From: an uncultured Alphaproteobacteria bacterium | GTDB taxonomy: Bacteria; Pseudomonadota; Alphaproteobacteria; Methylaequorales; Methylaequoraceae | Assembly (NCBI GenBank): GCA_902550225.1 | Contig: CACCYL010000002.1 | Span: forward strand, 84,089 to 148,088 | Direction of reading: 5' to 3' | DNA: 64,000 bases | Shown: positions 18,628-50,958 of the stretch, piece by piece | Layout of the letters: every line of letters starts with the position of its first letter | Position numbering within the stretch: the stretch's first letter is position 1 | Position numbers and translations under genes: made by a program | Notes under the pieces: model-generated | What the model saw: only the letters and a program-made list of their open reading frames with translations | Databases searched by the model: none | What the model was told of the DNA's origin: nothing

Positions 18628-19188
18628 TTGACTCGAACTTACATGGAAAACTCGCTCAAAAACATTATTAGAAACTATCAAAATTCTTTTAAAAGGAAAG
18701 TCTACACAAATGAAAATAACGATGTCGACTTATTAATGAACGTTTTTGGTATAACTCCCGATTTAAAGCGAGAAAATCGACAATATTGGGGACGAGAACT
18801 GGGAATGTGCTGGCAACTTTTAGTCATAGAATTATTCAGGAACACAAGAGATGATTTTGGTGCTGCCATAAAAATCGGTTCAGACGAACCCTGTGACCTA
18901 ACTGCCGGAACCTATGCGATTGACACAAAATATAGAATAGGGTCAGGAGACTCTGGTACGTTGAAAAAATTTAAATCTTACGGTCCTAAATTAAAAGAAA
19001 TGGGTTACTCACCAATATTTTTAATAGTTAGAGAAGATAACTTACCTGCGGCGATTACTGCTTGTCGAGTTGGTGGTTGGAGGGTATTAACCGGGAAAGA
19101 TACTTTTAAATTTATCAGAGAATTTACCAATTTTGATCTGGAGCAGTTTCTGCTCGACAATCGTGAAAATTTCAACGTTGAACGTTAA
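18628..19188 (+). CDS. type II restriction endonuclease candidate (PD-(D/E)xK fold)
   Basis: PCD-x9-DTK motif. The gene is convergent with the methyltransferase and overlaps it by 4 nt tail to tail. GC content is elevated. Confidence 0.55.
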   Translation: MTRTYMENSLKNIIRNYQNSFKRKVYTNENNDVDLLMNVFGITPDLKRENRQYWGRELGMCWQLLVIELFRNTRDDFGAAIKIGSDEPCDLTAGTYAIDTKYRIGSGDSGTLKKFKSYGPKLKEMGYSPIFLIVREDNLPAAITACRVGGWRVLTGKDTFKFIREFTNFDLEQFLLDNRENFNVER

Positions 19189-20078
19189 AAAAGAGAATAA
19201 TTGAGTCTTTCCCTGATTATCTCTACATACTTCTTTTCAATCTCAATTCCAAGATATCCTCTACCTAAATGTTTCGCAGCGAGCAGAGTTGTTCCAGAAC
19301 CAGCAAAAGGATCTATTACCACATTTTGAGTTCCTTCTGGAACAAGTATGCTTACTAATTTTTCCATTAATGATAGAGGTTTTACAGTACAATGCACATT
19401 GAACTCTTCCTTTTTGTCTCTTTGAATATTCTCTAAAATATTTGACTGAAATCCTCCATTCTTTAAAGTTGTATTGAAAACTCCAACTCCGTACTTCATT
19501 AATGTTTGTGAATAATTTTGTTCTAAAGGTTTTTGAACCAAGACAATGCCCTCCCATTCATTCCGAAAACAACTATGCCAACCCTGCCACCGATAATGTT
19601 CCTGGTAACCTTTACGTTTTAACTGAGATGCAGCGTTGTAACCCTTTGGGATGCCACTCGAACGTCGATACACAAGTATATCGCGAGCATAAAAACCTGC
19701 CTTTTCGAGGGCAACTTGGACATGCGCCAGTGTCCGGGTACTGTTAAATACAGCAACGGGACTTCCCGGTTTCAAGATTCTATAAAGTTCTTCTGACCAT
19801 TTCAGACACCACTCCTCATAATCAAGTATGTTTGACCGATTTTTATCATACCATCGCTTATTCCTTACCCCACCAGCAAGACCACTTCCGTAAGGTATGT
19901 TTTTCACTAATGTGTTACTTTTTTTGGACCTACTAATCCTTCGTTCAACTTCCTCAGTATCCCAATTTTTTCCGATAAATTCATAGTTATATGGAGGATC
20001 AGTGATACAAGCAGACACCGTATCAGGTTCAAATTGCTTCATGATCTTGATGCAATCTCCATTAAATATCTTATCCAA
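19185..20078 (-). CDS. DNA methyltransferase, beta-class N6A/N4C (DPPY ... FAGSGTT)
   Basis: Motif IV DPPY is N-terminal and motif I DPFAGSGTT is C-terminal. This is the ParB-less beta-class arrangement, as in M.RsrI and M.PvuII. GC content is markedly higher than in the surroundings. Confidence 0.85.
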   Translation of the reverse strand: MDKIFNGDCIKIMKQFEPDTVSACITDPPYNYEFIGKNWDTEEVERRISRSKKSNTLVKNIPYGSGLAGGVRNKRWYDKNRSNILDYEEWCLKWSEELYRILKPGSPVAVFNSTRTLAHVQVALEKAGFYARDILVYRRSSGIPKGYNAASQLKRKGYQEHYRWQGWHSCFRNEWEGIVLVQKPLEQNYSQTLMKYGVGVFNTTLKNGGFQSNILENIQRDKKEEFNVHCTVKPLSLMEKLVSILVPEGTQNVVIDPFAGSGTTLLAAKHLGRGYLGIEIEKKYVEIIRERLNYSLF

Positions 20079-20283
20079 ACCTAATCCTATGTATTTTTAA
20101 ATTAATTTGCTTGAACATATTTTTTCCTTCAACAGAATTGTAAACCCAATTTTAAACCAGATCTCTAAAATACAATTACCAAAATTTTATGAAAAAGTAT
20201 CCTACTTTCCATTTTTTAAAAATTGTAATCTCAAATAATCAAACTCACCATTTTTTTTTCTAAAACTTTTTAGAATTAACTTT

Positions 20284-20640
20284 TCAGTTCATTGAAGTCT
20301 TCAATTTTTTTGAAATTACACATAACCCCTTTGACTTATGAATAATTTTATAACTATCAAATCTTTTTAAACTCTTCTTGTATTTGTCTAATGTCATCCA
20401 GACCAATTTTGGAGTATACTGATTACCTGTAGGAGATTTTAAATTGGAACTATTAAGATAATCACTGATCTCAACTGATGACTTTCCCTCATCACTTAGG
20501 TACTTTATAAGTTTCAATCTATTTTCCCTTTTTGAATTTAAATTAAATATAGATAATTTTTGGGTTTCGATAACAACTCTGAATTTAATGAAAAGGGTGT
20601 TTAAACGCACCCTACCCCCCTTTTTCCTAATCACATTCAA
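20284..20640 (-). pseudogene. remnant of a large serine recombinase (recombinase domain only)
   Basis: YLSDEGKSSVEISDYLN...KSPTGNQYTPKLVWMTLDKYKK matches the HTH/recombinase-domain signature (G.S...IA..LN..G..TP.G..W....V..IL.N..Y). The N-terminal catalytic resolvase domain is missing and a G6 tract lies at the 5' end. Confidence 0.5.
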
Positions 20641-20750
20641 AATAGAATCATAGGTTGAAATCTAGGAAGATTTGTAATAGTTTCTTGATTTAAAATCTGT
20701 GATATTTTATGTCTTTTTTTTGATGTAAAATATGTGATTTTAGGGTCAAC

Positions 20751-20840
20751 GGAGAGTTGGCAGAGTGGTCGAATGCATCGGTCTTGAAAACCGACAAGGA
20801 TGCAAGTCCTTCTAGGGTTCGAATCCCTAACTCTCCGCCA
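20751..20840 (+). tRNA. tRNA-Ser (anticodon UGA)
   Basis: Cloverleaf folded by hand: acceptor GGAGAGT/ACTCTCC, anticodon stem TCGGT/ACCGA with loop CTTGAAA, a long variable arm, T arm TAGGG-TTCGAAT-CCCTA, discriminator G and an encoded CCA. Confidence 0.9.
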
Positions 20841-21172
20841 TTTTAGAGGTCATTAGTCGACAATATAGTCGACAACATTAAAAACCCTGTCCTCTGTAAC
20901 GCAGACTCACATTGACTTATAGAAGTTTTATTAGTTGAATAAACTAGTCTTGAAAACCGGCAAAGATGCAAGTCTTTCCAGGGTTCGAATCCCTGACTCT
21001 CCGCCACTTTTGGGGTCATTAGTCGACAACATAGTCGACAACACTAAAAACTCTATCCTCTGAAAGACAGACTCACATTGATTTGTAGAAAATATATTAG
21101 TTGAATAATCTGGTCTTGAAAACCGGCAAGGATGCAAGTCCTTCCAGGGTTCGAATCCCTGTCTCTCCGCCA
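20781..21172 (+). repeat. 166-bp tandem repeat (about 2.4 units). Each unit begins at the tRNA-Ser anticodon loop and contains the tRNA 3' half plus a GTCATTAGTCGACAAYATAGTCGACAACA spacer
   Basis: The period is exactly 166 bp (20781, 20947, 21113). The tRNA 3' halves recur at 20947-21006 and 21113-21172. Confidence 0.85.
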
Positions 21173-21343
21173 CTAACTCTAACCCTATTATTTCTGTGCT
21201 TCTACGGGCTTTAAATTGGCTTTTATACCTAATCATTATACCAAAACTAGATACCCCACCCCCATATATTTTTACCCGGGGGAGGAAAAATACCCCGGCT
21301 TGTTTTGATTGTTATAGTGTCTTAATAATTTTAAATTCAATAT

Positions 21344-21736
21344 TCATATTTTAAACAGTAAATCCCAACCAGTAATAAGCACCATTAAGTTTAAAAATGC
21401 TATTATAGCGGGGGCGATGTAGCCCTCAGCAGATGTCTTTACACCGTCAACAGTACCCCAATAACTATTTATAGTTTGAAAGCAAACAACTGCCCCGATA
21501 CATGCTTGCACAAAACCATAGACAAACAGTAACCAAGCGCCTTCGATAGAAGTTAGTAAAGCAATAGACAAGGTGACTGCAAAGCCGGCAGCAAAAGTGC
21601 CAACAAGTCTTGTCATAATTGCGCTACCTTCACCAAAGCCATATTTCTCAATGTACTTGCGTGTTTGGAAAATACATTGATAAGCATAAATCAAATTTCC
21701 AAATATTATTAATGCTATGAGTACAAAAATTAGCAT
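21344..21736 (-). CDS. small integral membrane protein, unknown function
   Basis: Four predicted TM segments and no recognisable motifs. Confidence 0.5.
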   Translation of the reverse strand: MLIFVLIALIIFGNLIYAYQCIFQTRKYIEKYGFGEGSAIMTRLVGTFAAGFAVTLSIALLTSIEGAWLLFVYGFVQACIGAVVCFQTINSYWGTVDGVKTSAEGYIAPAIIAFLNLMVLITGWDLLFKI

Positions 21737-26322: not shown

Positions 26323-27357
26323 TTACACACGCCAAACTGTAACACCACCTTGTCTATCCAATCCAGCAAGTGCTTTATCATCTTGACGCCAATATAATTT
26401 TGAAACAGAATCACTTACACTAGTTTCACTTAATCCACTTTCTTCATTTTCAGATTTTAAGTCCCAAAGTACTACAACACCATCCCTTGATCCTGAAGCT
26501 AAATTCATACCACGATTTGAAAAAGCTAGTGATGTAATTGGTTTAGTGTGAAGTTTTAACGATAAAGGAGATGTACCCTCAGGCCCATTGCCTTTGAAAC
26601 TCCAAACTGTTACCTCTTCACTTCCCCCTGTGGCCAAGTAGCTTCCAGTTTCGTCAAAAGACAAAGCTGAGGGTTTTAGTGGATATCCAGACATCATTGA
26701 ATCTTGCTCTGTTGATCTGCGCCAAAAATGAATTGTATTATCTTGGCTTCCACATACGACTATGTCGCTGTTTGGGCTTAATACCATTGAAACTAAAGAC
26801 CCTTTCCATTCTAATTTCTGCTTTATTTTTCCTGAAATACCATCAAAAAAGGAAACACGCCCATAGCATGTTGTAGCTAGTTCTTTTTCGATGGACCAAG
26901 CTAAATTACTTACAGTACTATTATGACTGTCAGATTGCCACATTTCATTACCCTCTTTGGTGTATACATAAATGGTTCGAGAGCAAGAAAACGCCAGCAT
27001 TTCTCCATCTTGTGACCACGATAAATTTTCTATCCAACCATCACCCAAATCAATGACTTTTTCCTTTTTTTTTTGTTGAGCATTCCAAATAATAACCTTT
27101 CCATCCTGACCTCCTGTTGCGAACCTATCAATTAATGGATGGATTGCTGTTGAAAGAATACCACCTTCATGAACTTGTCCTTGAGACCATTTCATTTTAC
27201 CAGATGTACCATCAAAGACATATATCCCTCCAGCAGCATCACAAATTATGAGAGCCTCACCATTAAAGTTCCAACCCCCAGAAATAGCGTAATCATTTAC
27301 ATAGGCTTTCCAACCACTTCTGAGAATCTTTTGGGGTTGTGTTTCCATTATACTCAT
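26323..27357 (-). CDS. WD40-repeat beta-propeller protein
   Basis: Seven WD-like blades ending in W/D dipeptides (WNAQ, WRRS, WDLK, WRV). There is a 4-nt ATGA overlap with the upstream COG0523 gene. Confidence 0.75.
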   Translation of the reverse strand: MSIMETQPQKILRSGWKAYVNDYAISGGWNFNGEALIICDAAGGIYVFDGTSGKMKWSQGQVHEGGILSTAIHPLIDRFATGGQDGKVIIWNAQQKKKEKVIDLGDGWIENLSWSQDGEMLAFSCSRTIYVYTKEGNEMWQSDSHNSTVSNLAWSIEKELATTCYGRVSFFDGISGKIKQKLEWKGSLVSMVLSPNSDIVVCGSQDNTIHFWRRSTEQDSMMSGYPLKPSALSFDETGSYLATGGSEEVTVWSFKGNGPEGTSPLSLKLHTKPITSLAFSNRGMNLASGSRDGVVVLWDLKSENEESGLSETSVSDSVSKLYWRQDDKALAGLDRQGGVTVWRV

Positions 27358-28706
27358 ACAAGACAGTCCTCAAAATCCCTTCGCATTTCCTTTTCATCAA
27401 GGTTGCGTCCAATAAATACAAGCTGATTTCGTCGAGGTAAACTTCCCCAAGGGCGATCAGGTTTTCCACTAAAAATCATATGAACACCTTGAAAAACGAA
27501 TCTATTTGACTCTCCAGCAATACTTAGAAAACCTTTCATACGAAAAATATCTACTCCTTTGTCTCTAAGAAGTTTAGAAATCCAAGCTTGTAGTTTTTGT
27601 TCATCCAAATCACCGTCTTTTTCAATTGAAAAAGAACCAACTTCGTCATCATGTTCATGTTGTGCTACCCATGTTCTTTCTACTTCGACTGCAACTTCAT
27701 CGTTATTATTTACTTCAATTAACTTCATATTGAATTCTTCTGCTGTATGTTGAGCAAAAAGACCTAATTTTGTATCTTTCTCAATTTCAATATAAAATTC
27801 TTTTGGACCAGACGACTCAAGGTTTAAGTTGACATGTTTTCCTTTAGGAATTATTTCTTCTGGTTTGATTGATTTGGCGTCTTCAGCGTAAAGGCGAACG
27901 CAGCGCTCAGCAGAATTTCTCAAACTTACATCATCTGCATTCTGATCAGGCACAACAACAAGAGACATAGAAGGGTCAGGACCCTCAGACATAATGATTT
28001 TATATTTACCACATTTAGTTGGATAAATTCCCGTCCATTCAAATGGATATTCTGGTTCTAGAAAAGTAGGACGGCGTGTAAGAGCCTGGTCTAAATTAAA
28101 GGCACTTTTATCAAGGACAGAGTTAATTGGAACATTGGCCATTTCACTCCTAATGAATTTTGCCATTTTATTCATTTCCCGAAGACGGGCTTCTAAATTA
28201 TCAAGTTCTGAGTCTTTGACAAGATCTGTTTTGTTAAGAACAATAACGTCTGCAAATGCAATTTGTTCCGTACTTTCGTTACTTCTTCCAAGTTGTTGAT
28301 TTATATGAAATGTATCAACAAGAGTTATAATTCCATCAAGAGAAAACTCTGAACTTATCTCATCATCCATAAAAAAAGTTTGAGCCACTGGACCTGGATC
28401 TGCAAGACCAGTAGTCTCTACAACAACGTAATCAAATTTATCACGCCTTTTCATGAGGTTCCCAAGTACTCTAATTAAATCACCACGAACTGTACAACAA
28501 ATACAACCATTGGCCATCTCAAAGATTTCTTCCTCTGCATTTATTACAAGAGCTTGGTCAATACCAACCTCTCCAAATTCATTTTCAATCACAGCTATTC
28601 GTTTTCCGTGTTGCTCGCTTAAGATACGATTTAGTAAAGTGGTTTTACCTGAACCAAGAAAGCCAGTTAGAATGGTTACAGGAACCTTTTTAGATGAACT
28701 ATCCAT
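27354..28706 (-). CDS. COG0523 (CobW/ZigA/YjiA) metallochaperone GTPase, long form with an extended linker
   Basis: P-loop GFLGSGKTT, the family-defining metal-binding CxCC (GCICCT), and a CobW_C-like C-terminus. There is a Zur box upstream of the operon. Confidence 0.85.
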   Translation of the reverse strand: MDSSSKKVPVTILTGFLGSGKTTLLNRILSEQHGKRIAVIENEFGEVGIDQALVINAEEEIFEMANGCICCTVRGDLIRVLGNLMKRRDKFDYVVVETTGLADPGPVAQTFFMDDEISSEFSLDGIITLVDTFHINQQLGRSNESTEQIAFADVIVLNKTDLVKDSELDNLEARLREMNKMAKFIRSEMANVPINSVLDKSAFNLDQALTRRPTFLEPEYPFEWTGIYPTKCGKYKIIMSEGPDPSMSLVVVPDQNADDVSLRNSAERCVRLYAEDAKSIKPEEIIPKGKHVNLNLESSGPKEFYIEIEKDTKLGLFAQHTAEEFNMKLIEVNNNDEVAVEVERTWVAQHEHDDEVGSFSIEKDGDLDEQKLQAWISKLLRDKGVDIFRMKGFLSIAGESNRFVFQGVHMIFSGKPDRPWGSLPRRNQLVFIGRNLDEKEMRRDFEDCLV

Positions 28707-28887
28707 TTTCTTCTCCATTTAAAATTGTCATTCTTTTTCCTAGATCTCTGCGAAGTTTTGTAATTGCATATGGTTTCATATTTTTCCACTTTTTGCATTC
28801 CTCACGTGTTCTGCCACAACCAATACACCATGAATTTTTCCCTATAAATTTGCATATGTCAATACATGGACTTTTATTACGTTTCAT
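28699..28887 (-). CDS. DUF1289-family small Cys-rich protein (YdhL-like)
   Basis: SPCIDIC-x7-CIGCGRT-x-EE-x2-W matches the DUF1289 pattern. It is the first gene of the Zur-box operon. Confidence 0.65.
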   Translation of the reverse strand: MKRNKSPCIDICKFIGKNSWCIGCGRTREECKKWKNMKPYAITKLRRDLGKRMTILNGEENG

Positions 28888-28918
28888 ATGTAAAGTTCTA
28901 AATTTTATTTTTTATTAT

Positions 28919-28939
28919 TGTAATGTTATAACATAACAC
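28919..28939. promoter_or_regulatory. candidate Zur box (TGTAATGTTATAACATAACAC) in the divergent intergenic region
   Basis: Perfect palindrome TGTTATAACA within GTAATGTTATAACATAAC. Compare the proteobacterial Zur consensus GAAATGTTATAWTATAACATTTC. Confidence 0.55.
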
Positions 28940-28998
28940 TTTATAGTATAGTTTTATTAAATAAAAAAACATTATGTATTCAAAAACTTTATGTAAAC

Positions 28999-29355
28999 AT
29001 GGATTTAATTATTGAAAATCTTTTAGGCCAAGCAGGCGGAAATTTCAAAGGACTTATATTTGGTTTTGTTCACGTTGCGATAATGATTGTAGGTTATTAC
29101 ACTGGTTTTAGCATAAATAAATTTTTAAAGATTCTTTCCAATGGCTATGTTGCTGGGATCTTTGGCGTAGTTTTGTCTCATATCATTGCAGACATAATTG
29201 CTTGCTATTTAGATCCAGACCTTAGAAAAATGATTTTTGGAGTAGTTATTGGTGGTATAATTCCTCTTTTTTTCATACCAATATTAGAAAGATTTGTTGT
29301 AAAAAGTAAACAAAGTTTTTTAGATGAAACAAAAAAAGAGTTAAATAGATCCTGA
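28999..29355 (+). CDS. small membrane protein (3-4 TM), unknown function, downstream of a Zur box
   Basis: Hydrophobic segments, with Gly-rich GVVIGGIIP. Confidence 0.5.
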   Translation: MDLIIENLLGQAGGNFKGLIFGFVHVAIMIVGYYTGFSINKFLKILSNGYVAGIFGVVLSHIIADIIACYLDPDLRKMIFGVVIGGIIPLFFIPILERFVVKSKQSFLDETKKELNRS

Positions 29356-29484
29356 CTAAAGATCTATTATTAAAAAATTTTTTGTTGTTCTTTTCCTTGT
29401 CATTCCTCCAATATTTAGAAGCCACTGACTCTGACTATTTTGAGGCTTGATTTGATAATTTTTTACCAAAATAAATTTATTATT

Positions 29485-29506
29485 GAAATGTTATATTATA
29501 ACACTT
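29485..29506. promoter_or_regulatory. candidate Zur box (GAAATGTTATATTATAACACTT)
   Basis: It matches the Zur consensus GAAATGTTATAATATAACATTTC at 19 of 22 positions, and lies about 50 nt upstream of the second COG0523 gene. Confidence 0.65.
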
Positions 29507-29555
29507 AATATAAAATCCTTACTTTGATTTAGTTAAATTTTGTGGAGAATTTATA

Positions 29556-30770
29556 ATGAAAGTTTTAGATAAAAAACTTCCAGTCACATTATTGTCTGGA
29601 TTTCTTGGTGCTGGAAAAACAACCCTTTTAAATCACATTCTTAATAATCGACAAGGTCTAAAGGTTGCAGTTATTGTGAACGATATGAGTGAAGTAAATA
29701 TTGATGCAAATCTTGTTGAGCGTGGAGGTGGTAACTTATCTCAAACTGAAGAGAAACTTGTAGAAATGAGCAATGGATGTATTTGCTGTACTTTACGTGA
29801 AGATCTTTTAATTCAAGTTAGAGAGTTAGCAAATGAAAATAAATTTGATTACCTTCTTATAGAAAGTACTGGTATCTCTGAACCTTTGCCAGTAGCAACT
29901 ACTTTTGACTTTCGTGATGAGGATGGAGCTAGTTTATCTGACGTAGCAAAACTTGATACAATGGTGACTGTTGTGGATGCTGCAAATCTTATAAAAAATT
30001 ACAGCTCTACTGATTTTTTAAAAGATAAAGGAGAAAGTCTAGAAGATGATGAACGAACACTTGTTGATCTTCTTGTCGAACAGATTGAGTTTGCCAATGT
30101 TATTCTATTGAATAAAATTGATTTAATATCCTCTGAAGAATTAAAAACTGTTAATGCAATTATAAGTGGACTTAACACTGAGGCAAAGGTCTTTGAATGC
30201 TCTCATTCGACCGTGAATCTCAAAGAAGTTGTTGGTACTGGATTGTTTGATCTTAAAAAAGCTTACACTCATCCGTTATGGGCAAAAGAACTTTATAATT
30301 TTAAAGATCATCTTCCTGAAACAGAAGAGTATGGTATCACAAGTTTCGTATATTTAGCCCGCGAACCATTTGATCCATCAAAAATCTATAATTTCTTCAA
30401 TCAAGAATGGCCTGGTGTAATGAGATCAAAAGGCTTTTTTTGGATTTCGAGTCGACCTGAATTTATTGGTGAGGTTTCTCAGGCTGGTGCGTTTGTTCGT
30501 CATCAGGGAATTGGAAGATGGTGGACAACTGTACCGAAAGATCGTTGGCCAGAAGGACCTAATTTTGATGCTTTGATCGATAAATATTGGAATAAAGATT
30601 ATGGTGACCGTCGACAAGAAATAGTTTTTATAGGTTTAAAGTCTGAAATGAGTGAAAAGAACATTCGAGAGAGGCTAGACGCTTGTCTGATTAAGAACTA
30701 TCTTGATGATCCTAGTGCATATCATAAAGCTCTAGATCCCTTTCCAGCATGGTTTAAAAAAGTAGCTTAA
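29556..30770 (+). CDS. COG0523 (CobW/YjiA/ZigA) metallochaperone GTPase, standard length
   Basis: P-loop GFLGAGKTT, CxCC motif GCICCT and a CobW_C domain. Confidence 0.88.
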
Positions 30771-46114: not shown

Positions 46115-46498
46115 TTAGTAAAAAATTAAGTCAGCTAAAAAAGCAAAGAAAAAACCTGTGATATAAACTACAAACGAAAAAGTCAATATAACGGAATTTG
46201 TTGACCTTAATTTCAAACATATTTTAGCTTCTGCTGGGTTTGTTGGACATGAAGCATTATTTCTTCTCCATGCCATATAACATGATAAAGCCAACATAAA
46301 ACCTGCTAATATAAAGACATATAATTTATATTTTGATAGAACAACAATCCACGGAAATATTGATACAATGCTAATTAAAGTTGTACCCAATCCAACAGTC
46401 ACAAGCAGAGCTGGTAAAGCACAACAAACTAGCGTACTTAAACTTGTAAATAAACTTAATATTGGTGCAAACAATTCTTTATAGAAATTATTTAACAT
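46115..46498 (-). CDS. MerT-like metal-transport inner membrane protein
   Basis: Three TM helices with a vicinal Cys pair in TM1 (LVCCALPALL) and a second Cys pair in the cytoplasmic loop (SCP...ICL), which is the MerT topology. Confidence 0.55.
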   Translation of the reverse strand: MLNNFYKELFAPILSLFTSLSTLVCCALPALLVTVGLGTTLISIVSIFPWIVVLSKYKLYVFILAGFMLALSCYMAWRRNNASCPTNPAEAKICLKLRSTNSVILTFSFVVYITGFFFAFLADLIFY

Positions 46499-46799
46499 TT
46501 TTTATTTCTCTGACGTCATAACCAGAATCCTTAATCATTTCAGTGATTTTTTCATAACTTAATTTTTGATTTTCTTTAAAATTAATAGTAATCAACATAT
46601 TTTGTAAATTTACTTTTATACCTGCAACTGATTTTTGTTTTGAAAATATTTTTTCAATTGAACGAGCACAAAAATCACACACAAGTCCATTAACGTATAC
46701 GTACAAAATATCACCATTGTATTGTTCATCCGATAGAATTTTACTGCTGTTAAACAATACAAATTGTAAAATAAACAAATAGATAATAATTTTTTTCAT
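46488..46799 (-). CDS. periplasmic heavy-metal-associated (HMA) domain protein, MerP/CopZ-like
   Basis: Signal peptide MKKIIIYLFILQFVLFNSS and the HMA motif GLVCDFC. The start is taken at the internal ATG at 46799. Confidence 0.6.
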   Translation of the reverse strand: MKKIIIYLFILQFVLFNSSKILSDEQYNGDILYVYVNGLVCDFCARSIEKIFSKQKSVAGIKVNLQNMLITINFKENQKLSYEKITEMIKDSGYDVREIKNVK

Positions 46800-46809
46800 T
46801 TTTGCTCCT

Positions 46810-47457
46810 CTAAAATCTTTTAATGAAGTTAAACATAAAGTCTTTGTAGTTATTAAGACCAAACTCTGCTAAATAATCTCCTTTAAAAACTCTCAACATT
46901 GGAGTAAATGTCAAGTTTTTACGACTTCCAGGCATATGATTGGCTTGAAGCATTATCCAAGTATGTAAATATCCATATTCAGCCAAATAAGGAGCCACTC
47001 CAATTCTAAATTGTTGTGAAAAAAATCTATCTATTGAAGATGCATAAGTAGCTTGATTCTGATAACTTGTAAAAAAACTTCTATCTTCCCAATCAAATAA
47101 AATGCCTGTGAAAAGGGATGGTTCAAATTTATTTTCAAAAGCTTCATAATTACTATTTGCTAAACCTATTCCGTTCTTTAAATAAAAATTTGTTTGCGAC
47201 TTAGGTTTATTTAGTCTTTTTATGAGATAATTTAATTGAAGTCCATGAAATTGCCATTCTTTTTCTCTCCAATATTCTGCTCTATAACCTATTGAATAAT
47301 CAATTGATGGACTATAATGCAAATGAAAACTATGTTTACTAAAATCATTTGCCTGCATTAATGTCCAGCCTCCAGGATATGAAATTGGTCTAGCATTAAT
47401 ATCTTTTATGACTATAAAAGTGCACAAAAGAACTATTTTGCATAAAAATATCTTCAT
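46810..47457 (-). CDS. secreted hypothetical protein, aromatic-rich (possible beta-barrel)
   Basis: Signal peptide MKIFLCKIVLLCTFIVIKDINA. Confidence 0.45.
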   Translation of the reverse strand: MKIFLCKIVLLCTFIVIKDINARPISYPGGWTLMQANDFSKHSFHLHYSPSIDYSIGYRAEYWREKEWQFHGLQLNYLIKRLNKPKSQTNFYLKNGIGLANSNYEAFENKFEPSLFTGILFDWEDRSFFTSYQNQATYASSIDRFFSQQFRIGVAPYLAEYGYLHTWIMLQANHMPGSRKNLTFTPMLRVFKGDYLAEFGLNNYKDFMFNFIKRF

Positions 47458-47909: not shown

Positions 47910-47941
47910 TTGACATAGAACAAAGTGTTATAATATAACAT
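47910..47941 (+). promoter_or_regulatory. sigma70-like promoter (TTGACA -35, TAATAT -10) overlapping a Zur box (GTGTTATAATATAACAT)
   Basis: TTGACA at 47910-47915, then a 15-nt spacer and TAATAT at 47931-47936, which lies inside the box. The palindrome TGTTATAATATAACA at 47927-47941 overlaps the -10 and sits 36 nt upstream of the TBDT start codon. Confidence 0.65.
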
Positions 47942-47976: not shown

Positions 47977-49941
47977 ATGTATAAAATAGTTACCTTCGTC
48001 TTGACTGTATTACTTGTAGCTAATGTAAACGCTGAAAAGTTAGAATCTATATTTGTTGCACCTGATGTATTTATAACATCTAAAATTAAGCCGAGTACTG
48101 AATATGAAAGTGATAGGGGTAATATTTTATATGATTCTCATGAACTAGAAAAAAGCAGACAATACTCTATTGGTCAGATGCTCAAAGATTTACCAGGAAT
48201 TGCTTCACAAGGTCTTGGTAACGCTTCACGTCCAATAATCAGGGGTCTTGGTAATTCGCGAGTTAAAATTTTACAAAACAGTTCTTCACTCGGTGATGTT
48301 TCCGAATTTGGTGAGGATCATATTGTTGGATATGATCCATTATTAATTGATAAAATAGAAATTATTAAGGGGCCCGGTACGTTACTTTATGGAAACAATG
48401 GTTTTGCTGGAGTTGTAAATATTATAAACCCTTTAATTGCAGTAGATAAGCCTCTTTCTGACGAAAACGTCCAATTAGGTTTTGGATACAAGACCTCAGG
48501 TGGAGAGTTGGGAACAGCATTAAAACTTGGTAAATCTGTGGACAATTTTACTGTTAGAGGTTCTGGAAGTTTTGTAAGTGCAGGACCTTACGATTTAGCA
48601 AATGTTTCAACTAAGCAAGCAAATTCATCAAAGTTCATGACATCTGGTGGCGTTGGAATAACATACAATGATGGTCAGAACCATTTTGGAGTTTCTTTGG
48701 ACAAACTTGAAGCTGTATATCAAAATCCTGGTCCTGAAGGTGAAGAAAATATGACATCGCTTAATCCTACAAGAAATACAATAAATTTTGATTCTTCACT
48801 TGCATTAAATTATTTAATCTTTGAAAAGTTTAACCTAGAAGGCACTGTTTCTGAATATAATCATGCTGAAAGAACAGGCGATGGGAACAATCATAATATA
48901 ACATTTTTCAATGATATATATGAAATAAAAACATCACTGAATCACAAATCTCTATTCAATCAAAATGAAGAAGGATTAATAGGTTTTCATTTTATGAATA
49001 AAAATCAAGGTGCAACAGGAGCTGAGGAAGGTCATTTAACTCCAACGAAGACCAATAGTTTTGCTTTATTTGCTCTCGAAAAATTAAAATTTGATTTATT
49101 TGATTTAGATCTTGGTGGTCGAATTGAATCTGTAAATTTGAAAACAACACAGCATGAGCAAGGTTTTTTCCCTGCTGCATTTTCTTCCACTGTCAAAAGA
49201 GAAATCATTCCAAACAATAGTGTATTTTTAGGTTTTGATTTTACACAAAGAGCACCGAATGCTGTCGAACTATTCGCAGACGGTCCTCACCACGCTCTTG
49301 AAAATGTTGAGACAGGTAACGTGAACTTAGAAAAAGAGAGTTCTTACAATGTATCACTTGGATATAATTATGATGAAAATCTAAATAAATTAAAAATTGA
49401 AGCTTATTATAACTACATTAATGATTTTATTGCTGCAGATAGAAACGGTAATACTCAAAACGTTGAAGGTGAAGATTTTAATGTTGTTATTCACGATCAA
49501 TATAATGCATTATTTACTGGAGTAGAATTAACTGGTCAGTATGGCATAACGAAATTGGATGATTTTGATTTCCTTGCTAATTTTGTAGGGGAATTTTTGA
49601 AGGGTTACAGAACATCCAATGACAAGGCTATAACTAGAATTCCACAATCAAAAGTAAATGTTGGTTTACAACTCATTAATGAGGAATGGGATACTAATCT
49701 TAAATATTATCATTATTTTGATAAAGAATTCACAGGTCCCTTTTATACAAGAACAGGTGGTCACTCAAGATTAGATTTTGATCTCACAAAAGATTTCATG
49801 TACTCAGATTTATCTGGCCATGCAATGTTTAGTGTAACCAATCTTCTGAATACAGTTGGTCGTGATCATCTTGAGGCAAAAAAGGGCCAAGTTCAATTAC
49901 CCGGTAGGAGTTTTAATTTTAATTTAAAGCTATTCTATTAA
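47977..49941 (+). CDS. TonB-dependent outer-membrane receptor, candidate zinc (ZnuD-like) transporter
   Basis: Signal peptide, plug region, and a 22-strand barrel ending in aromatic residues (LKLFY). A Zur box lies in its promoter. Confidence 0.8.
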   Translation: MYKIVTFVLTVLLVANVNAEKLESIFVAPDVFITSKIKPSTEYESDRGNILYDSHELEKSRQYSIGQMLKDLPGIASQGLGNASRPIIRGLGNSRVKILQNSSSLGDVSEFGEDHIVGYDPLLIDKIEIIKGPGTLLYGNNGFAGVVNIINPLIAVDKPLSDENVQLGFGYKTSGGELGTALKLGKSVDNFTVRGSGSFVSAGPYDLANVSTKQANSSKFMTSGGVGITYNDGQNHFGVSLDKLEAVYQNPGPEGEENMTSLNPTRNTINFDSSLALNYLIFEKFNLEGTVSEYNHAERTGDGNNHNITFFNDIYEIKTSLNHKSLFNQNEEGLIGFHFMNKNQGATGAEEGHLTPTKTNSFALFALEKLKFDLFDLDLGGRIESVNLKTTQHEQGFFPAAFSSTVKREIIPNNSVFLGFDFTQRAPNAVELFADGPHHALENVETGNVNLEKESSYNVSLGYNYDENLNKLKIEAYYNYINDFIAADRNGNTQNVEGEDFNVVIHDQYNALFTGVELTGQYGITKLDDFDFLANFVGEFLKGYRTSNDKAITRIPQSKVNVGLQLINEEWDTNLKYYHYFDKEFTGPFYTRTGGHSRLDFDLTKDFMYSDLSGHAMFSVTNLLNTVGRDHLEAKKGQVQLPGRSFNFNLKLFY

Positions 49942-50316: not shown

Positions 50317-50958
50317 ATGATTTTAAATTGTGAAAATATGAAATCCTTAATGGACTTCAAACATAATAACCATCAATTAGCAATTTTGAATCGTCAAACT
50401 CCCGAGAATTCCAATGTTTTCTTTAGTGAATTAAACATAACTTCTTTTTCAACTTCAGGTTATGTTTCATTAGAGAATAGTTTAAATGACATTAGCAAGC
50501 TTACAGAAGAAAAACTTCCATCAAAAATTAGGAAAAACTTATTTTTTGAAAAATGGTTAAATGATATGAGTGAAATTTGTAAAATGTTTTGTTTATTTCA
50601 AGAAAAAGATAAAATAAGTTTTTGGTTGGGATCCGAGAGAGGTTGTAAACGTTTTCATGTTGATATGGTCCCTTATAGATGTTTAATAACCTATTCCGGA
50701 CAAGGTACAGAATTACTACCTGATAATGCAGCAGACAGGAATGCTTTTATTAGTGGAAAACCAAATGAAAATATAATTAAAGACAGATCAGCGATAAGAT
50801 ATTTAAATAAATGGGATGTTGCAATTTTTCGTGGTGGAAAACATGGAATTTTACATCGAACTCCAGAGTCAGCACTAAATGATAGATCTTCAATTTTAAT
50901 GAGGCTTGATGATTCTTCTTTTTTAGAGCAAATAGAAAAAATAAACAATGTTAATTAA
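50317..50958 (+). CDS. hypothetical cytoplasmic protein (possibly DUF1826-like)
   Basis: No clear motif. The start codon lies 4 nt after the stop of the upstream ORF. Confidence 0.45.
   Translation: MILNCENMKSLMDFKHNNHQLAILNRQTPENSNVFFSELNITSFSTSGYVSLENSLNDISKLTEEKLPSKIRKNLFFEKWLNDMSEICKMFCLFQEKDKISFWLGSERGCKRFHVDMVPYRCLITYSGQGTELLPDNAADRNAFISGKPNENIIKDRSAIRYLNKWDVAIFRGGKHGILHRTPESALNDRSSILMRLDDSSFLEQIEKINNVN

Follow-up and report, generated by a model that had tools for sequence, protein, structure and literature searches.

A long-form COG0523 GTPase and its WD40 partner in a putative zinc-limitation operon of a marine alphaproteobacterium

A window of 64,000 nucleotides (nt) from an uncultured alphaproteobacterium (the whole stretch analysed here: contig CACCYL010000002.1, positions 84,089-148,088 of the forward strand, assembly GCA_902550225.1; 29.9% guanine-cytosine (GC) overall) contains three genes on the minus strand that encode a DUF1289 protein, a long-form COG0523 GTPase of the G3E family and a WD40 beta-propeller. 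The GTPase and the WD40 protein form a near-obligate gene pair that is found in many phyla, and in this window the pair lies behind an operator-like palindrome. Taken as a whole, we consider it likely that the three genes form an operon which Zur represses and which serves a streamlined marine alphaproteobacterium under zinc limitation, comprising a metallochaperone, its WD40 partner and a DUF1289 accessory. The pairing itself has been known since 2009, when Haas et al. (BMC Genomics 10:470; PMC2770081) reported in their main text that prokaryotic COG0523 subfamily 5 clusters with WD40-repeat genes; an earlier note on this DNA was therefore mistaken in calling it undescribed. The present locus adds one further member, in a DUF1289 variant. 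The insert domain of the GTPase, the eight blades predicted for the propeller and the near-obligate character of the pairing are not described in that study. Here, we will lay out the evidence for the pair, its proteins and its regulation, and weigh how the module may function.

Overlapping genes and a near-obligate pair

The first gene (28699..28887, minus strand) encodes a 62-amino-acid (aa) protein matching Pfam PF06945. The second (27354..28706, minus strand) encodes a 450-aa protein with the Pfam domains cobW and CobW_C, and the third (26323..27357, minus strand) a 344-aa protein with strong Pfam WD40 and beta-propeller matches. These genes overlap tightly, as the earlier note had read them: the ATG of the COG0523 gene at 28706, which is preceded by GGAG, overlaps the DUF1289 stop codon by 8 nt (ATGGATAG), and a combined ATGA contains the COG0523 stop and the WD40 start. 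An alternative ATG upstream, at 28718, would extend the COG0523 open reading frame (ORF; 27354..28718) to a 454-aa reading, but the start at 28706 is favoured by orthologue alignments and by database gene calls of 450 aa. The nearest loci in genomes come from single-cell and metagenome assemblies labelled Alphaproteobacteria or Rickettsiales (with WD40 identities of 97%, 83% and 74%), and marine contigs of 1.1-1.6 Mb carry proteins identical or 94% identical to those of the window. The host is an abundant, streamlined marine alphaproteobacterium.

The earlier note had made its proposal depend on co-occurrence of the two larger genes in other genomes, and the pair is indeed present when surveyed from either side. 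A WD40-anchored scan of one genome per species returned more than 564 loci, the best 80 of which were analysed; these span Binatia, Latescibacterota, Vicinamibacterales, Poribacteria, Gemmatimonadota, Dehalococcoidia, Spirochaetia, Pseudomonadales, SAR324, Planctomycetota and others. Three of the 80 were set aside because they had too little upstream sequence. An insert-bearing COG0523 gene lies just upstream in 75 of the 77 assessable loci, representing at least 12 phyla; the two exceptions are one truncated gene and one 3.5-kb deletion. The COG0523 gene is directly adjacent to the WD40 gene in 59 of the 80 loci, typically with a 9-nt overlap (projected spacing mostly -9 nt), and in 16 a single gene for a FAD-oxidoreductase (Pyr_redox_3) stands between them. 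These final counts come from tblastn anchors, as a neighbourhood filter based on longest ORFs lost the COG0523 gene in 30 loci. Anchoring on the insert instead gave 69 metagenome loci with at least 300 nt of downstream sequence, and a WD40 gene follows in 67 of them (66 directly, 1 with a gap), usually with overlapping stop and start codons, and is missing in 2. This linkage holds even at 33-40% insert identity. A near-obligate pair of overlapping genes suggests translational coupling, and a functional link between the COG0523 and WD40 proteins is strongly supported by the conserved gene order.

Two representative proteins that join COG0523 and WD40 sequences (P0441 and P0484) look like internal deletions or assembly chimeras rather than clean fusions, and were left out of the evidence for interaction. 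The oxidoreductase wedged between the pair genes is 383 aa long and occurs in Binatia and some other lineages (e.g. L017:6514-7665; surveyed loci are given by L numbers). It was seen in L016, L017, L024, L025, L029, L033, L037, L045, L047 and L052, and further in L053, L055, L061, L065 and L078; three of these (L016, L017 and L045) retain a short piece of the 3' end of COG0523 immediately ahead of the WD40 start. Upstream, loci of this type carry HupE/UreJ and DUF1636 genes.

Architecture of the three proteins

In the numbering of the 454-aa reading, Pfam cobW covers residues 13-189 of the GTPase (E-value 3.5e-62, 209.6 bits) and CobW_C residues 361-453 (E-value 2.2e-26, 92 bits). The protein contains the Walker A motif GFLGSGKTT (15-23), NGCICC (66-71), NKTD (158-161) and RMKG (389-392), none of which varies among 20 orthologues from at least 12 phyla (mean column identity 85%); NGCICC and R389-M-K391-G392 are also invariant in a 30-sequence set. 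Identity of the GTPase across phyla is 65-88%. The N(G/S)CxCC motif between G2 and G3 is the high-affinity metal site of COG0523 proteins (PMC11672702). According to a 2026 preprint on other COG0523 proteins, RxKG serves ZigA and MigC as an intramolecular arginine finger, and the linker of ZigA gates zinc-stimulated hydrolysis (PMC13001444). At the level of sequence, the protein carries all COG0523 hallmarks, being a G3E GTPase with both CxCC and RxKG, and would be a GTP-dependent zinc metallochaperone. It scores below the cut-offs of the named equivalogs, with 200.4 bits against 600 for ZigA (NF038288; G-domain only), 202.9 against 332.1 for CobW (TIGR02475) and 260 against 361 for the YjiA-type model.

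Between the two COG0523 domains lies the long insert that the earlier note had pointed out, and here its reading stands: about 135 aa (residues ~211-345; 27672..28076, minus strand) are left unmatched by the Pfam domains on either side. The insert contains the motifs EPEYPFEWTG, GPDPxMSLVV and AQHTAEEF, and is followed by an invariant AQHEHDDE stretch at residues 348-355. It has no Pfam match even at an E-value of 10, and no sequence match in the PDB, because the alignment to YjiA (E-value 3e-62) covers only residues 8-215 and 353-445 of the long COG0523 protein. Searching with the insert only yielded just 171 matches in 1.84 billion representative proteins, mostly COG0523 proteins of 440-475 aa. 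In the AlphaFold2 model of the GTPase, the insert region is predicted to be beta-rich with one helix, and it is only there that the predicted local distance difference test (pLDDT) reaches 60-87.

Significant matches place the same domain in other proteins: in a ZnuA protein (P0461), where it occupies the usual position of the His-rich loop; at the C-terminus of a CDF transporter (P0491), after ZT_dimer; at the N-terminus of two HlyD/CusB-type membrane-fusion proteins (P0449 and P0475); and in a TPR protein (P0471). The insert is therefore a mobile domain of ~130 aa that has no Pfam model. His-rich tracts usually flank it, and in some COG0523 members they lie inside it. Invariant across these architectures are F-E-W, G-P, H and E-F, and in the window protein E223, H320 and E324 are candidate ligands. 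The presence of the domain in metal-trafficking proteins, beside His-rich tracts, points to a role in metal handling rather than in pure docking of the WD40 protein.

Insert-like sequence was also observed in large type-IX-secreted PKD/Ig-like proteins (P0412, 1723 aa; P0434, 1766 aa; P0510, 933 aa), which contain 4-10 such repeats. The repeats correspond to positions 8-55 of the insert query, which is 154 aa long, and thus to its EPEYPFEW...GPDP section; this hints that the section may be an Ig-like beta unit.

The WD40 protein was modelled by AlphaFold2 at a pLDDT of 90.2, with 32 strands that make up eight blades. Its best superpositions are with the eight-bladed propellers NLE1/Rsa4, ODA16 and Tako8 (template modelling (TM) score 0.79-0.87), whereas the seven-bladed WDR5, G-beta and RACK1 superpose at only 0.61-0.69. 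The predicted structure thus makes it an eight-bladed protein, and the seven blades of the earlier note have to be given up. No signal peptide is evident in it. Orthologues are 58-61% identical across phyla and share an almost invariant stretch at residues 200-264, CGSQDNxxHFWRRSTxxDSMMSGYPxKPS...WxFxGxGPEGT; residues H63, H145, C202, D206, H210 and H270 are invariant, and a stretch of 60 residues is unusually conserved. Some databases label the orthologues 'PQQ-binding-like beta-propeller', but only generic WD40 and propeller models match the protein, with no enzyme family or cofactor motif detected among them. Reading the locus as a defence system (NTPase plus WD40) was dropped, as PADLOC gave a generic repeat match only.

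The DUF1289 protein was correctly identified in the earlier note: it scores 49.5 bits against a Pfam cut-off of 27 (E-value 3.8e-13) and has four invariant cysteines (C8-x3-C12-x8-C21-x2-C24), and the motif SPCIDIC...WCIGCGRT is present in every copy linked to the pair. Such linkage was found in 4 of the 80 loci from genomes and in 12 of 80 from metagenomes, on varying sides (upstream or downstream). DUF1289 is thus a minority accessory of the pair that is restricted to marine lineages, in which its four cysteines would perhaps make it a small metal donor or acceptor. Its position in the window is held elsewhere by an unrelated protein of ~100 aa with the motif E[IL]xCLEEGCxPxETV, encoded 1-30 nt upstream of the long COG0523 gene in 36 of 73 genome loci (e.g. 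L010:5773-6066, L014:3591-3899 and L084:4422-4730). This CLEEGC protein is not present in the window and has no Pfam match. Our literature search found no paper that joins DUF1289 with COG0523.

Zur-type boxes and the zinc-related neighbourhood

A Zur-box-like palindrome, TGTTATGTTATAACA with the core GTTATGTTATAAC (28924..28938), lies 37 nt upstream of the DUF1289 ATG; the operon palindrome, GTGTTATGTTATAACAT, is also 61 nt upstream of a divergent gene for a 118-aa predicted membrane protein (28999..29355, plus strand). Two further boxes in the window are perfect palindromes, TGTTATAATATAACA. The one at 29489..29503 lies 53 nt upstream of a second COG0523 paralogue, a ZigA-like protein of 404 aa (29556..30770, plus strand; NCBIfam NF038288) that scores 585.2 bits, just below the cut-off of 600. 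The other, at 47926..47940, lies 37 nt upstream of a gene for a TonB-dependent receptor (47977..49941), downstream of which follow a 121-aa ORF without a family and a DUF1826 gene (50317..50958). In the 64 kb, 3 copies of the core GTTATNNTATAAC are present, all intergenic, against 0.11 expected in shuffled sequences; the core equals the Zur consensus tabulated for alpha- and gamma-proteobacteria (Haas et al. 2009, Additional file 5; PMC2770081). Promoter-like hexamers overlap each box, with a -35-like hexamer at the box at 28924..28938. The position of the operon box is kept in relatives, as GTTATATTATAAC in L143 and GTTAAAATATAAC in L008 and L089. Zur-type boxes before the operon, the ZigA-like gene and the TonB receptor-DUF1826 cluster together suggest a small zinc-limitation regulon. 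The three genes look like one Zur-controlled transcript, and on this evidence we infer that Zur is the regulator in the host and zinc the metal.

Gene neighbourhoods at other loci are in large part of the same kind. The commonest neighbours are ZnuA, ZnuC-like ATPases, Fur-family regulators, TonB receptors and ZigA-like paralogues; in the genome loci, ZnuA was counted 14 times, ZnuC-like ATPases 18, Fur-family regulators 13 and TonB-dependent receptors 13, and 17 of the 80 have a ZigA-like paralogue no more than 8 kb from the pair. In Accumulibacter regalis, the pair stands at the end of a classical zinc-paralogue cluster (queD2-cam-pyrC2-like-DUF1826-COG0523-WD40). At L096, a Fur-family gene and a divergent znuC precede znuA-COG0523-WD40, in which the COG0523 protein is the insert-bearing form of 449 aa.

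The operons of Haas et al. provide the closest comparison. In their Additional files 3 and 5, these authors list Zur-box operons of the type znuCBA-COG0523-5-WD40(-sapB) in Bradyrhizobium, Nitrobacter and Rhodopseudomonas, znuA-COG0523-5-WD40 in Prochlorococcus, and COG0523-5-WD40 in Nostoc (all1751) and Cyanothece (PMC2770081). The Anabaena gene all1751 has been reported to be Zur-regulated. As in those operons, in the window the WD40 gene directly follows the COG0523 gene, and the candidate Zur site upstream has the same alpha-proteobacterial consensus; in both, zinc-uptake genes are found nearby, and the Prochlorococcus-type layout (znuC<>znuA-COG0523-WD40) was recovered with the insert-bearing form at L096. 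From this shared architecture and the published description, the long COG0523 protein would belong to subfamily 5. Unlike the listed operons, that of the window lacks znuABC and is led by DUF1289 (in a few cases, an unnamed 'X' is all that Haas et al. give), and its host is an uncultured marine alphaproteobacterium.

An Rfam scan of the window found a single tRNA elsewhere and no riboswitch, the cobalamin type included, so that riboswitch control was rejected as a reading. The divergent 118-aa membrane protein shares the Zur-box region with the operon and belongs to no curated family, with only weak Pfam matches (holin, E-value 7e-4; MntP, E-value 0.04). It is kept in this divergent position in relatives, with 83% identity in L008 and the beginning of the gene recognisable in L143 and L086, and could be a small transporter regulated by zinc. 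Close to the TonB receptor-DUF1826 cluster lies an ORF with an HMA domain (46488..46862). In 10 pair-carrying loci (including L015, L018, L028, L046 and L075; e.g. L018:1040-1651), a lipoprotein of ~190 aa with His/Asp/Glu-rich N- and C-terminal tails and no Pfam family is encoded beside a TonB-dependent receptor, and may be a periplasmic zinc-binding protein.

Mechanism, alternatives and related systems

We propose the following mechanism for the operon. When zinc is scarce, Zur would come off its operator, which overlaps the promoter, and transcription would yield a single message for all three genes, their translation being coupled because stop and start codons overlap. The GTPase would then take up Zn(II) at its CxCC site, helped by the insert, a probably folded domain of ~135 aa that stands in place of the flexible or His-rich linker of other COG0523 proteins and that most likely captures the metal or hands it over. 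The eight-bladed WD40 protein would be a stoichiometric cytoplasmic partner that binds the GTPase, most likely as an adaptor that presents client proteins or gates the open/closed cycle of the GTPase. DUF1289 would be a lineage-specific accessory, perhaps a small four-cysteine donor or acceptor of metal. Contact between these proteins and the part that each of them plays belong to this proposal, as do Zur control and zinc, whereas the gene anatomy, the family memberships, the operator-like sites and the near-obligate pairing are observed.

Several observations weigh against this proposal. The insert occurs in proteins that have no WD40 partner, and hence cannot be a module for WD40 docking and nothing more. 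From 30 homologues, AlphaFold2 modelled the GTPase poorly overall (pLDDT 51), the sequences of the family being too much alike (86% column identity). No gene for Zur was found in the window. The searchable literature yielded no expression, metal-binding or interaction data for the family and no functional study of the WD40 partner or the pair (all1750/all1751, bll7768, RPA0861, PMM1033/1034, SYNW2482). Furthermore, some distant loci have neighbours of a nickel/cobalt type, with HupE/UreJ and DUF1636 in Binatia, CbiM in Vicinamibacterales, and CbiX with a FecCD/ABC transporter near a Gemmatimonadetes locus, so the metal may not be zinc everywhere.

These last neighbours could be extended to a reading in which the module handles cobalt or nickel, in the manner of CobW, and feeds B12 or nickel/cobalt enzymes, the palindromes belonging to another Fur-family regulator. 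The genes cobT and cobS a few kb away in the relative L008 would fit it, as would the HoxN-type transporters listed near subfamily 5 (Haas et al. 2009; PMC2770081). Nevertheless, we regard it as very improbable for the window, in which the sites match the Zur consensus and not other Fur-family boxes, precede the ZigA-like gene and the TonB receptor-DUF1826 cluster, and are unaccompanied by a cobalamin riboswitch; the protein falls far short of the CobW cut-off (203 bits against 332), no cobN was found near the pair, and ZnuA and Fur-family genes are the commonest neighbours. The main rival makes the WD40 protein the client of the chaperone, with a metal site or folding that depends on it, instead of an adaptor. 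Dedicated activator-enzyme pairs offer a model for such a one-to-one, translationally coupled pairing, nitrile hydratase being an enzyme that depends on a COG0523 activator. The invariant His, Asp and Cys residues of the propeller, its highly conserved 60-residue stretch and the 'PQQ-binding-like' name of some orthologues are in line with this possibility, which we consider unlikely all the same: the only models detected are generic, several of the conserved histidines sit at structural GH positions of WD repeats, and WD40-repeat proteins are not known as enzymes (PMC6689063).

The remaining alternatives concern the arrangement and origin of the genes. The earlier note had raised GC content above the local background, which is the case, as the WD40 gene (38.5% GC) ranks 2nd and the COG0523 gene (36.4%) 7th among 63 genes. 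As a hint of foreign origin, it is not supported. GC at third codon positions (GC3) is 0.249 and 0.215 for these genes, typical of the window (mean 0.217, standard deviation 0.047), so the excess lies in codon positions 1 and 2 and stems from amino-acid composition, not from foreign codon usage; it reflects conserved proteins rich in Gly, Ala, Asp and Trp. A recently acquired island that inherited its GC content and overlaps from a donor would also agree with the 58-74% identity of the proteins to counterparts in high-GC phyla that are very distant, which points to lateral transfer (and spread of the module among phyla is likely), and with the relative L006 (single-amplified genome AG-337-K15). 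This relative is 95% identical and collinear on both sides, but lacks window positions 27236-30732 (3.5 kb), that is, the first ~40 WD40 codons, the long COG0523, DUF1289 and membrane genes and almost all of the ZigA-like gene; its junction shows a ~15-nt overlap, and the gap is a true deletion at the level of the strain or else an artefact of assembly. Given the native codon usage, and relatives at 74-88% identity that keep the layout including the divergent membrane gene, a recent acquisition seems improbable, and it concerns origin only, without competing with the functional explanation. Lastly, the genes might be functionally independent, their adjacency incidental or their overlaps miscalled, with real promoters between them. 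Promoter-like hexamers do occur inside the genes of this AT-rich DNA, but at chance level (16 found against 14.7 expected in shuffled sequence), on which ground internal promoters were rejected, and orthologue alignments support the overlapping starts. With the pair conserved in the independent loci of both surveys, across many phyla, this alternative is effectively refuted, and with it the miscalled starts that the earlier note had named as a risk. Apart from the operon, a tRNA gene (20751-20837) was observed at 18628-21736 among short genes, an N6/N4 DNA methylase (19185..20078) included, whose GC3 of 0.31-0.42 is unusually high (window mean 0.22); the stretch may be a small foreign islet.

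Going back to the proposed zinc-chaperone operon, a number of known systems resemble it in part. ZNG1 is a eukaryotic COG0523 zinc chaperone of methionine aminopeptidase 1, and recognises this client via an N-terminal peptide. It shares with the window protein the G3E GTPase with CxCC and CobW_C, and belongs to the low-zinc response, as the window protein is predicted to do. Haas et al. assigned most eukaryotic COG0523 proteins to subfamily 5 (PMC2770081), the putative subfamily of the window protein. Unlike the window protein, ZNG1 has no ~135-aa insert and no known WD40 partner, and plant ZNG2 has His-rich loops in its linker instead of the insert. Conversely, the P-loop strand of the window protein begins at residue 8 of 450, so it has no ZNG1-like N-terminal extension for client binding. 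ZigA, ZagA, YeiR and YjiA have in common with it the G-domain, the CxCC site and the RxKG C-terminal domain, and are commonly under Zur control, but their linkers are short or His-rich and they have no dedicated propeller partner; the clients proposed for proteins of this type are the enzymes HutH, MurD, FolE and SltB.

Two other propellers invite comparison. AztD, of the AztABCD transporter, is a beta-propeller encoded in a zinc-homeostasis locus, and CobW-family genes are frequent neighbours of aztD. It is secreted to the periplasm, binds zinc itself and passes it to the solute-binding protein AztC, whereas the window protein, in which no signal peptide is evident, is a canonical WD40-repeat propeller paired with a cytoplasmic GTPase. 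CIAO1, of the cytosolic iron-sulfur targeting complex, is a WD40 scaffold that links a metallocofactor delivery machine with upstream P-loop NTPases to its clients, and was among the sequence matches to the WD40 profile. It offers an analogy only, being eukaryotic, seven-bladed, devoted to another cofactor and no closer in relation than the generic WD40 fold.

A more far-reaching version of our proposal, which we put forward tentatively, would make the long-form COG0523 protein a distinct, two-component metallochaperone that is inoperative without its dedicated eight-bladed propeller. The propeller could choose the clients, or tether the chaperone to some large assembly, for instance the ribosome. 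The linker could have been replaced by an uncatalogued, mobile zinc-handling domain (FEW...GPDP...TxHxxxEF), and the same domain could be reused in ZnuA, CDF exporters and CusB-type efflux adaptors. DUF1289 and the ~100-aa CLEEGC protein could be interchangeable metal donors that head the operon.

Clients are known for few bacterial COG0523 chaperones. A partner that accompanies one subfamily in ~97% of loci, in many phyla, is therefore the most direct handle on the function of that subfamily, and together with the shared insert domain it is the most useful lead from this locus. If metal-binding, the insert domain would link four classes of zinc-trafficking proteins. The module is abundant where zinc is scarce, in the metagenomes of the ocean and in its picocyanobacteria, and hence has a bearing on the rationing of zinc by oligotrophic plankton.

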